The notes below the pieces were generated by a model, which saw only the letters and a list, made by a program, of their open reading frames with translations, was not told the DNA's origin and searched no databases. DNA of 64,000 bases from Parcubacteria group bacterium GW2011_GWC1_36_108. Its GTDB lineage: Bacteria; Patescibacteriota; Minisyncoccia; Moranbacterales; GWC2-37-73. Both the position numbers and the translations under genes were made by a program. Where the stretch lies: assembly GCA_000991245.1 (NCBI GenBank), contig LBRD01000002.1:25906-89905 (forward strand), written 5' to 3'. Numbering within the stretch: position 1 is the stretch's first letter; the number at the start of each line of letters is the position of its first letter. Below, one piece after another: positions 7,827-8,243 of the stretch.

Positions 7827-7893
7827 GCCCAGGTGGTGGAATTGCCTGCCTGCCGGCAGGCAGGGTATACACGCCAGTCTTAGGAACTGGTAG
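7827..7893 (+). pseudogene. 5' fragment copy of tRNA-Leu(TAG) with a palindrome inserted in the D-loop
   Basis: ATTATGCCcagGTGGTGGAATT[GCCTGCCTGCCGGCAGGCAGG]GTATACACGCCAGTCTTAGGAACTGGT. This is about 90% identical to the 5' 60 nt of the complete tRNA at 8162, including upstream ATTATGCC. It has no 3' half. Confidence 0.8.
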
Positions 7894-7918
7894 GGTAATT
7901 CTTGTTATCTGTGATATT

Positions 7919-8155
7919 ATGTATTATACATATGCTATTGCAAGTATAAATAGAAAATATATTTATGTGGGCATAAGTGATGATGTTGACAGGAGAATAA
8001 GAGTTCACAATAATGGTTACAATAAAACAACGAGATCATATTGTCCGTTTAAAACAATTTTAATTGAAGAACATGCTGATAGAAATAAGGCTAGAAAAAG
8101 GGAAAAATATTTAAAATCTGGTTGCGGAAAAGAATTTTTAAAAACATTGGTTTGA
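7919..8155 (+). CDS. Small GIY-YIG nuclease-domain protein
   Basis: 78 aa. YIYVGIS...R..VHNNG...T matches the GIY-YIG core. Lies exactly between the tRNA-Leu fragment and the intact tRNA-Leu. Confidence 0.7.
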   Translation: MYYTYAIASINRKYIYVGISDDVDRRIRVHNNGYNKTTRSYCPFKTILIEEHADRNKARKREKYLKSGCGKEFLKTLV

Positions 8156-8161
8156 TATTAT

Positions 8162-8243
8162 GCCGCGGTGGTGGAATTGGTATACACGCCAGTCTTAGGA
8201 ACTGGTGGGGCAACCCGTGCGAGTCCGAGTCTCGCCCGCGGCA
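8162..8243 (+). tRNA. tRNA-Leu (anticodon TAG), long variable arm
   Basis: Acceptor GCCGCGG/CCGCGGC. Anticodon loop CTTAGGA. Variable arm TGGGGCAACCCGTGC. T-loop TCCGAGT. Confidence 0.85.

Follow-up and report, generated by a model that had tools for sequence, protein, structure and literature searches.

The GIY-YIG enzyme SegB of phages T4 and T6 is encoded in a tRNA cluster and cleaves inside tRNA genes; in T6, a unit with segB and a tRNA gene undergoes recombination-dependent tandem amplification, and across 296 phage genomes SegB shows a statistical association with tRNA genes (PMC13096335). Partial tRNA copies, in turn, are a classic mark of integrase-borne islands (PMC9897764). We analysed a stretch of 64,000 nucleotides (nt) from Parcubacteria group bacterium GW2011_GWC1_36_108 (contig LBRD01000002.1, positions 25,906 to 89,905; hereafter, the window), in which a gene for a GIY-YIG nuclease of 78 amino acids (aa) lies between one partial copy and one complete copy of tRNA-Leu(TAG). 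We propose that positions 7827-8263 of the window are, more likely than not though by no means with certainty, one copy of a widespread selfish cassette of the homing type, which dwells in tRNA genes and has a partner palindrome. Such a cassette would have three parts: the gene for a nuclease of 77-83 aa made of the GIY-YIG domain only and codirectional with the tRNA; one intact tRNA copy, which would keep the cell supplied; and a disabled copy of the same tRNA, with a GC-rich palindrome. The locus belongs to a large class of mini GIY-YIG cassettes that reside in tRNA genes, have partner palindromes and extend across phyla.

Read from position 7822, the locus consists of ATTAT, GCCCAGGTGGTGGAATTG, CCTGCCTGCCGGCAGGCAGG, GTATACACGCCAGTCTTAGGAACTGGTAGGGTAAT, a 19-nt spacer, the open reading frame (ORF) of the nuclease (7919-8155), TATTAT and a tRNA gene (8162-8244), all on the plus strand save for the palindrome CCTGCCTGCCGGCAGGCAGG, to which no strand is assigned. 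A direct repeat of the 5' half of the tRNA and the sequence upstream had been reported in the original prediction, and it is present, a few bases away from the coordinates first given. It extends over 7822-7898 and 8157-8213, and comprises a first block (7822-7844 against 8157-8179) with 21 of 23 positions alike (91%) and a second (7864-7898 against 8179-8213) with 33 of 35 alike (94%); its exact core is 28 nt long (E = 4e-10, blastn). Only the upstream copy is split, by a perfect palindrome of 20 bp at 7845-7864, at the D-loop position of the tRNA fragment. This fragment is made of tRNA positions 1-18 (GCCCAGGTGGTGGAATTG, 7827-7844) and of positions 19 to about 53 (7865-7899), the latter part running from the 3' side of the D arm through the anticodon arm (with TAG) into the beginning of the variable arm. 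The T arm and the 3' acceptor strand are missing, and a scan of 7300-8800 with Rfam gave no tRNA match at the upstream copy and no RNA family or intron other than tRNA. Thus, an upstream copy that lacks the 3' half of the tRNA and carries a palindrome, a bracketed 78-aa ORF (Pfam PF01541, E = 1e-16) and a complete tRNA-Leu(TAG) downstream (ARAGORN; Rfam, 54.9 bits) were all correctly recognised at the outset. The ORF stands alone between the repeats, as the single ORF with a Pfam match in the 437-bp unit.

The 78-aa protein matches the GIY-YIG family of Pfam over residues 1-67, with 61.5 bits against a cut-off of 22.6. Twenty-one residues are invariant in 35 homologues, including Y5, Y14, Y16, G18, R26, H30 and E62, and these fit the catalytic motifs of the family (the tyrosines of GIY and YIG, an Arg, a His or Tyr, and a Glu), with roles that can be suggested by analogy with I-TevI and UvrC. 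An AlphaFold2 model with a predicted local distance difference test (pLDDT) score of 96 has three strands and four helices, and Foldseek matched it to UPF0213, SLX1, I-TevI and the N-terminal domain of UvrC. The nearest solved relatives are the UPF0213 proteins BH0048 and EF2693 and the nuclease domain of SLX1 (template modeling scores of 0.67-0.70), followed by the catalytic domain of I-TevI; SLX1 and UPF0213 are also the nearest by sequence (hmmsearch, E = 4e-6 and 2e-5). The protein stops at residue 78, right after the nuclease domain, and has no RING/PHD zinc finger. A separate DNA-binding domain is likewise absent, both the Pfam match and the model consisting of the catalytic domain alone. 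The nuclease is SLX1-like and probably recognises DNA structure rather than a long sequence. No informative family for it was found in NCBIfam, PADLOC or PHROGs. The reading frame is intact in 79 of 81 loci surveyed (see below), and the ratio of non-synonymous to synonymous substitution rates (dN/dS) is 0.07-0.30 in seven of eight pairs of homologues; the eighth pair (L027/L044) gave 0.004 with a saturated dS and is uninformative, and a ninth, with an in-frame stop, yielded no value. We conclude that the ORF is under purifying selection.

The site without the cassette was sought with the RluD-like neighbour as query, and the contigs of the closest homologues were then compared. Seven syntenic Moranbacteria relatives (L125, L127, L128, L158-L161), with RluD 67-87% identical, each carry one tRNA-Leu(TAG), GCCCAGGTGGTGGAATTGGTATACACGCCAGTCTTAGGAACTGGTAGAG(T/C)AATCTGTGGAGGTTCGAGTCCTCTCCTGGGCAC, between a 97-aa gene and RluD, and in none of the seven was a GIY-YIG ORF or a palindrome found at that site. 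Nor does any of them have an intact upstream tRNA, as two genuine tRNA genes with an unrelated ORF in between would have implied. The 56 nt upstream of the tRNA fragment in the window (7771-7826) are 100% identical to L125. The blastn alignment with L125 extends from the UbiA gene to window position 7899, its sole gap being the palindrome, and restarts at 8264, the start codon of RluD. The boundaries of the replacement are thus at 7899/7900 and 8263/8264, and window positions 7900-8263 take the place of 313 nt (L125 2188-2500), which comprised the resident tRNA's 3' part, a terminator and some 270 nt of non-coding sequence. On the left, the replacing DNA begins with a 19-nt spacer (7900-7918) that separates the fragment from the ORF's start codon and has no homology to L125; on the right, it ends with a 19-nt junction (8245-8263) that reaches the start codon of the RluD-like gene. 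Within the spacer, ATCTGTG (7907-7913) may, as judged by eye, be left over from the resident's variable arm as well.

The upstream piece is of the resident type on both sides of the palindrome (GCCCAGG and GGTAGGGTAAT). Its first 18 positions are the same as in the single tRNA of the seven relatives, and GGTAGGGTAAT agrees with the resident allele, GGTAGAGTAAT, and not with GGTGGGGCAAC of the intact neighbouring tRNA. Because the 56-nt flank is identical to that of L125 and the fragment has the allele-specific bases of the resident, the fragment is the 5' part of the resident tRNA gene itself, still where it was. The working tRNA has an acceptor stem (GCCGCGG/CCGCGGC), a variable arm (GGGGCAACCC) and a T arm (GCGAG TCCGAGT CTCGC) unlike those of the resident; it is another allele, which arrived with the ORF or after it. 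Its T loop, TCCGAGT, has a C at position 55, where the allele of the relatives reads TTCGAGT; a U at position 55 of the T loop is almost universal among tRNAs. Single-crossover (Campbell) integration of a circle carrying a tRNA fragment was considered and is ruled out here, as the 3' half of the working tRNA is non-resident. The original prediction held that an element had inserted at the tRNA and duplicated part of it: the insertion is borne out by the seven empty sites, whereas the duplication is not, since the fragment is the resident allele. Nor is a mechanism of the attachment-site (att) type indicated: there is no integrase, and the two copies are different alleles.

A non-coding segment of about 270 nt is conserved between the terminator of tRNA-Leu(TAG) and RluD in L125 (2230-2480), L127, L128, L159 and L161, and is missing from the window, L126 and L160; it gave no match in Rfam, and its predicted fold is not significant (z = -1.2). 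L158 (1122-1510), one of the empty sites, has another insert of about 100 nt after the tRNA, with the last 15 nt of the tRNA (TCCTCTCCTGGGCAC) duplicated at its flanks, as well as an upstream insert with inverted repeats at its ends.

Two other contigs carry a cassette at the same place. L126 is close to the window (UbiA 97.6%, IspA 95% and RluD 85% identical), and its working tRNA equals the divergent tRNA of the window at 83 of 83 bases, with ACTACA following in both. Its GIY-YIG gene differs: it codes for 83 aa and is only 33% identical to that of the window. The resident fragment is shorter (positions 1-18), and the palindrome is a different one, of 45 nt, inserted at GGTGG|TGGAATTG. In sliding-window comparisons, the immediate flanks of the cassette in the window resemble L125 (98-99% identity to the left and 91-97% in the opening 400 nt of RluD), and farther away the window is L126-like; the identity profiles form a mosaic, without a clean conversion tract. 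The locus is a recombination mosaic, and cassettes of different clades were swapped on a shared tRNA. L032 is syntenic but distant (RluD 48% identical); it has the same type of element as the window, with the palindrome at the same spot in the D loop, and, downstream of its intact tRNA, retains GGAGCAATCCGTGGAGGTT, left over from the 3' part of the resident. A similar leftover of the 3' part after the intact tRNA is seen by eye in L015 and L017.

Close homologues of the protein number in the hundreds (77-83 aa, 50-78% identical to that of the window), and a profile search with E up to 1e-10 gave a family of 2,528 clusters at 50% identity. We surveyed 80 loci from contigs chosen as one genome per species, together with the window (n = 81). 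These loci span Patescibacteria, Bacteroidota (including Algoriphagus and Niabella isolates), Ignavibacteriota, Omnitrophota and others. A tRNA on the same strand lies within 350 nt of the ORF in 79 loci and within 110 nt in 73, and the adjoining tRNA is a tRNA-Leu (anticodon CAA, TAA, CAG, GAG or TAG) in 74; the rare exceptions are Asn, Arg or Phe tRNAs. The association in 79/81 loci bears out two expectations, that further GIY-YIG copies would adjoin tRNA genes and that the gene is the element's own nuclease; elsewhere in the window itself there are no further GIY-YIG genes, even with 16 diverse family members as queries. In 57 loci the arrangement is that of the window, with a 5' fragment upstream and the intact tRNA directly after the stop codon, typically at 0-15 nt (in the window, the 6-nt spacer TATTAT at 8156-8161). 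The mirror layout, with the intact tRNA upstream of the ORF (at about 25-100 nt in most) and often with a terminator, accounts for 22. The 5' orientation, which had been thought unusual, is therefore the common one. Across the ORF from the intact tRNA, nearly every locus has a part of the same tRNA again, from the 5' end in the layout of the window and from the 3' end in the mirror layout, and its length ranges from about 13 nt to nearly complete. L019, L061, L063 and L071 have two near-complete tRNA copies, one of them with a palindrome, and tandem ORFs or arrays of palindrome-bearing fragments are found in L033, L038, L075, L085 and L079. The second clade of nucleases, to which that of L126 belongs, was found at 29 loci in a metagenome scan; there, the layout is as before, the tRNAs are those for Gln, Gly, Asp, Arg, Asn, Val, Ser and Thr, and the palindromes are different ones. 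Many of the database hits (P0241-P0390) are versions of 100-140 aa in which the domain begins at residue 20-60; these over-long versions probably come from gene callers that read through the tRNA fragment and the palindrome. In the window, an ORF at 7792-7893 encodes ...CLPAGRQG....

The palindrome CCTGCCTGCCGGCAGGCAGG occurs just once in the 64 kb, even with up to three mismatches allowed; the number expected, from 100 shuffles, is 0. As single-stranded DNA, it is predicted to form a hairpin of 8 bp (-8 kcal/mol). In 68 of the 81 loci, this 20-mer is found no more than 160 nt from the ORF when up to three errors are allowed. Ten of the remaining 13 have degenerate, split or nested versions, or a copy slightly farther off; in one the contig ends within the palindrome, and two are without any trace. 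The 20-mer or a derivative is thus present within about 200 nt of the ORF in 78-79 loci. In 66 cases the 10 nt on either side of the palindrome both match the intact tRNA next to it, and 62 of these have the two flanks directly joined in that tRNA; hence, the palindrome is a clean insertion of 20 bp, without duplication or loss of the target. Among the 81 loci, no palindrome was found inside an intact tRNA. The insertion points, about ten positions, are all in loops of the cloverleaf or at junctions of loop and stem: 12/13, 14-16, 17/18, 20/21 and 22-24 in the D loop, 31-33 and 39/40 at the borders of the anticodon loop, and 64-66 and 68-70 at those of the T loop. Sites in the D arm are favoured by survivorship, because the layout of the window keeps only the 5' part of the fragment. 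Some fragments have two palindromes (L010, L017 and L034). The 20-mer is often identical at 20 of 20 positions between phyla whose nucleases are only 50-60% identical, and close subclades of the nuclease have a common type of palindrome (for example, {L130, L132, L133} and {L152, L153, L155}). The palindrome is the best-conserved part of the system, and not an incidental scar. Three other roles for it were tried and ruled out: a terminator, as there is no run of T and no terminator-like site; the left end of the inserted DNA, as the resident allele lies on both its sides; and one of two terminal inverted repeats formed by half-palindromes flanking the ORF, as there are no half-sites to the right of the ORF.

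Palindromes also occur farther from the ORF, and 17 of 24 such copies lie in tRNA-like debris as well. Some sit in the centre of another palindrome (L054, L062, several viral contigs, and window positions 50720-50810). Thirty-five loci in viral contigs carry the palindrome of the window, most of them in high-GC intergenic DNA. In one viral contig (L114, 2239-2330) it occupies the variable loop of an otherwise complete tRNA-Met, which ARAGORN calls as a 92-nt tRNA. Another (L121, 440-1100) has a 5' fragment of a class I tRNA with the palindrome, followed by a GIY-YIG ORF 40% identical to that of the window; its downstream tRNA copy is broken after the anticodon stem by an insert with what seems, as judged by eye, to be an HNH-like ORF. 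Within the window, a 560-aa ORF with no Pfam match (49496-51178) contains, in frame and 11 nt apart, a second variant of 21 nt, CCTGCCTACCGGACAGGCAGG (50727-50747), and a 45-nt palindrome of the L126 type (50759-50803; blastn, 83.6% between L126 2074-2139 and window 50758-50824); neither has a strand assigned. They encode LPTGQAG and PRVDEQSFLRVEAGG, and both appear nested in a third palindrome, ATTCC...GGGAAT. The 64 kb hold only two GC-rich perfect hairpins besides the one at 7845-7864: ATTCCCGCCTACGCGGGAAT (50289-50308), which is in frame in the same 560-aa ORF and encodes SRLRGNDNN, and ATTCCCGCCTCCGCGGGAAT (51524-51543). These two look like a third family of palindromic mini-inserts.

The genes around the cassette are, in order, those for the CCA-adding enzyme, UbiA (minus strand) and the 97-aa protein, then, beyond the cassette, those for the RluD-like pseudouridine synthase, a polyprenyl synthase (minus strand) and L19, followed by a tRNA cluster. 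The 78-aa sequence has a 100% match in a protein named from Candidatus Moranbacteria GW2011_GWC2_37_73 (Patescibacteria/candidate phyla radiation, CPR). Nine contigs from several metagenomes with the identical protein (L001-L009) are identical over 7780-8260, and are therefore uninformative on differences between strains. The ORF is probably transcribed from the promoter of the resident tRNA, along with the working tRNA, given an unaltered upstream flank, a shared strand and a gap of just 6 nt from the end of the ORF to the intact tRNA. The working tRNA could also be served by a promoter-like site within the ORF (7986-8014).

How such a cassette might arise and persist can be proposed as follows. 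The nuclease would cut DNA that forms hairpins, for example the stem-loops of tRNA genes, and the breaks would be repaired via recombination between tRNA-homologous stretches, so that the ORF and a tRNA copy would enter tRNA genes. The product of repair would be a tRNA-ORF-tRNA arrangement, in states such as those of L019, L061, L063 and L071; among experimental precedents for this, the best is SegB of phage T6. Since one tRNA copy suffices, either copy could then be lost; the spare one would acquire the partner palindrome and shrink by deletion. Loss of one or the other copy, together with shrinkage, would produce the two mirror layouts and the continuum of fragment lengths. The weakest step concerns the palindrome itself, which is most likely the cognate DNA element of the nuclease: exact conservation of the 20-mer points to recognition by a conserved protein, and the ORF is the sole protein in the cassette. 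By turning a recombinant that deletes the ORF into one with a dead tRNA, the palindrome would stabilise the cassette. A further-reaching version, which we advance only tentatively and hold to be rather doubtful, is that of a two-part mobile system of a new kind, in which a structure-specific GIY-YIG nuclease of one domain mobilises the 20-bp palindrome into hairpin-forming DNA without a transposase or integrase, and acts as a natural cleave-and-rescue element. The targets would then be tRNA-gene loops and the middle of other palindromes; with the resident tRNA disabled and a working copy carried or retained, the cell could not lose the cassette. There is a real chance that the part played by the palindrome involves a new mechanism. 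In the full-text literature outside subscription journals, we found no prior description of the cassette, the palindrome or its peptide; the arrangement with a rescue copy and the conserved palindrome are apparently undescribed features.

Several points weigh against the interpretation as a homing-type cassette. The steps of the mechanism are all ones that we infer, and the primary event cannot be reconstructed because the flanks are a recombination mosaic. With no DNA-binding domain, the specificity for tRNA-Leu and for a 20-bp sequence is unexplained. In the mirror layout, the palindrome would have no stabilising role, because homology runs past it into the terminator. The 3' half of the working tRNA is not that of the resident allele, unlike what a single crossover with a circle predicts. 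The closest pairs of ORFs (75-93% identity in nt) lie nearly all in the same isoacceptor gene, so that the moving unit is not delimited by recent jumps from tRNA to tRNA; inheritance, as it appears from these comparisons, is mostly vertical, which, with long-term purifying selection, would be unusual for a purely selfish homing gene. No homologue was found in a phage collection (50,697 records) or a plasmid collection at E up to 1e-8. As to the palindrome, its co-variation with the clade of the nuclease is loose: L129 and L138 (49% identical) share a type, and L138 and L142 (57%) do not. It lacks a nearby ORF in 34 of the 35 viral-contig loci, a relative of the ORF being found only in L121, and there is no nuclease gene near the second variant in the 560-aa ORF. 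Direct repeats of 8, 14 and 7 nt border the palindrome in three viral contigs (L092, L098 and L108), in contrast to the clean insertions in tRNA fragments.

The viral loci and the in-gene copy without a nearby GIY-YIG ORF, the loose co-variation, and the nesting of palindromes in one another (L054, L062) would all suit a different explanation, in which the palindromes are independent selfish mini-elements, like REP (repetitive extragenic palindromic) or Rickettsia palindromic elements, moved by some other function, and the GIY-YIG gene is an ordinary free-standing homing endonuclease, functionally unlinked to them. The palindromes would then accumulate in what little neutral sequence these compact genomes have, for instance in dead tRNA copies. 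We consider this unlikely. The 20-mer or a derivative accompanies the ORF in 78-79/81 loci of different phyla, while the 64-kb window has one other copy only, and the copies distant from an ORF also favour tRNA debris (17/24). Moreover, the 20-mer is far better conserved than the proteins (50-70% identical), which argues for recognition by a protein.

It is also conceivable, albeit at long odds, that the protein is a domesticated host enzyme, a repair or defence nuclease of the YhbQ/UPF0213 type that is merely co-transcribed with the tRNA. The tRNA debris would be a by-product of local recombination and the palindrome a hairpin for the stability or processing of the mRNA. The strong purifying selection and the frame intact in 79/81 loci agree with this, as do the codirectional ORF at 0-15 nt from the tRNA, the GC hairpin in a 5' leader (in one layout) or a 3' trailer (in the other), and the finding of related elements mostly in the same isoacceptor gene, which suggests long vertical inheritance. 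However, distribution is patchy, with seven close relatives lacking the ORF at the same locus, and in L126 a GIY-YIG gene of another clade sits at the identical site. Further points against a host enzyme are the tandem arrays and recurrent debris at some loci and the lack of any NCBIfam or PADLOC match, and a hairpin that acts in RNA needs no identical 20 bases across phyla. Site-specific integration of a discrete element that duplicates the 5' part of the tRNA and excises as a circle across the repeat is most improbable: although a direct repeat brackets the ORF, relatives have empty sites and partial tRNA duplicates are a known mark of integrating elements (PMC9897764), the 437-bp unit has no integrase or other ORF, the copies of the repeat are different alleles and not a duplicated target, the cassette replaced about 313 nt of resident DNA and did not just split it, the fragments vary from about 13 to 74 nt across loci and hence leave no fixed att core, and the repeats of other loci share no common crossover core.

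If the locus is a homing-type cassette with a partner palindrome, as we favour, a very small gene for a nuclease, about 240 bp long, has spread into the tRNA genes of several bacterial phyla, with a strategy, a working copy and a disabled copy marked by a palindrome, that is distinct from the splicing of introns and the att duplication of islands. It would provide a minimal and tractable case of target choice by a catalytic domain alone, probably via DNA structure, and possibly a new route for tiny palindromic inserts, including those in frame in protein genes. It would also explain many of the tRNA fragments in genome annotations, and the over-long gene calls that read through them, and would be a natural analogue of engineered cleave-and-rescue gene drives.

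Several known systems share features with the cassette. The islands and prophages of tRNA genes are 9-120 kb long and code for a recombinase of the tyrosine or serine type, and it is usually the tRNA's 3' part that they duplicate, as an exact att core; the cassette is of about 0.4 kb, has no recombinase, and shows differing alleles and fragments of variable length. REP elements with their REP-associated tyrosine transposases (RAYT), and the Rickettsia palindromic elements, are likewise short GC-rich palindromes that go with a specific gene family and are also found dispersed, and in frame in genes. The gene of the cassette, in contrast to REP/RAYT and IS200/IS605, codes for a GIY-YIG protein and not for an HUH/Y1 transposase; with no HUH enzyme, the cassette does not belong with them. 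Its palindrome is without a GTAG or CGTC tag, and the copy number in the window is very low, unlike that of REP and Rickettsia elements. A preference for disabled tRNA copies is, to our knowledge, not known for either.

Group I introns in tRNA genes are also selfish DNA that resides in a tRNA gene without loss of tRNA function, but they keep that function by splicing and the cassette by a second copy of the gene. No match to Intron_gpI was found in 7300-8800 at E up to 10. The window does have such an intron elsewhere: tRNA-Phe(GAA) at 11551-11877 is split by a group I intron at 11573-11827 (Rfam Intron_gpI, 73.5 bits), which is why ARAGORN misses the gene, and relatives have an uninterrupted tRNA-Phe between Val and Met. 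The ORF that follows (11935-12627) has helix-turn-helix (HTH) domains (CENP-B_N and HTH_23), and may be a homing-type gene.

By sequence and fold together, the cassette protein is nearest to SLX1 and UPF0213 (YhbQ, YazA; PDB 1zg2 and 1ywl). SLX1 is a structure-specific nuclease for branched DNA, with a RING/PHD zinc finger and SLX4 as its partner; the cassette protein has neither. We know of no report of YhbQ or YazA beside tRNA genes or palindromes. Among characterised systems, the closest analogue is SegB. It is much larger, with a C-terminal DNA-binding region. SegB is a phage protein without preference for a type of tRNA, whereas the cassette nuclease is found in bacterial chromosomes and, in this clade, is tied to tRNA-Leu; the partner palindrome and the disabled tRNA copy, both present in the cassette, have no counterpart in SegB. 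A separate DNA-binding domain for a long recognition site, as in homing genes of the Seg kind, is the feature that the cassette ORF does not have. In other respects it resembles them: it is intergenic and free-standing, with no intron or intein, and its presence varies at one locus (seven empty sites, the same type in L032 and another clade in L126). If the cassette is what we propose, it extends the link between GIY-YIG enzymes and tRNA genes, as known for SegB, from phages to bacterial chromosomes.

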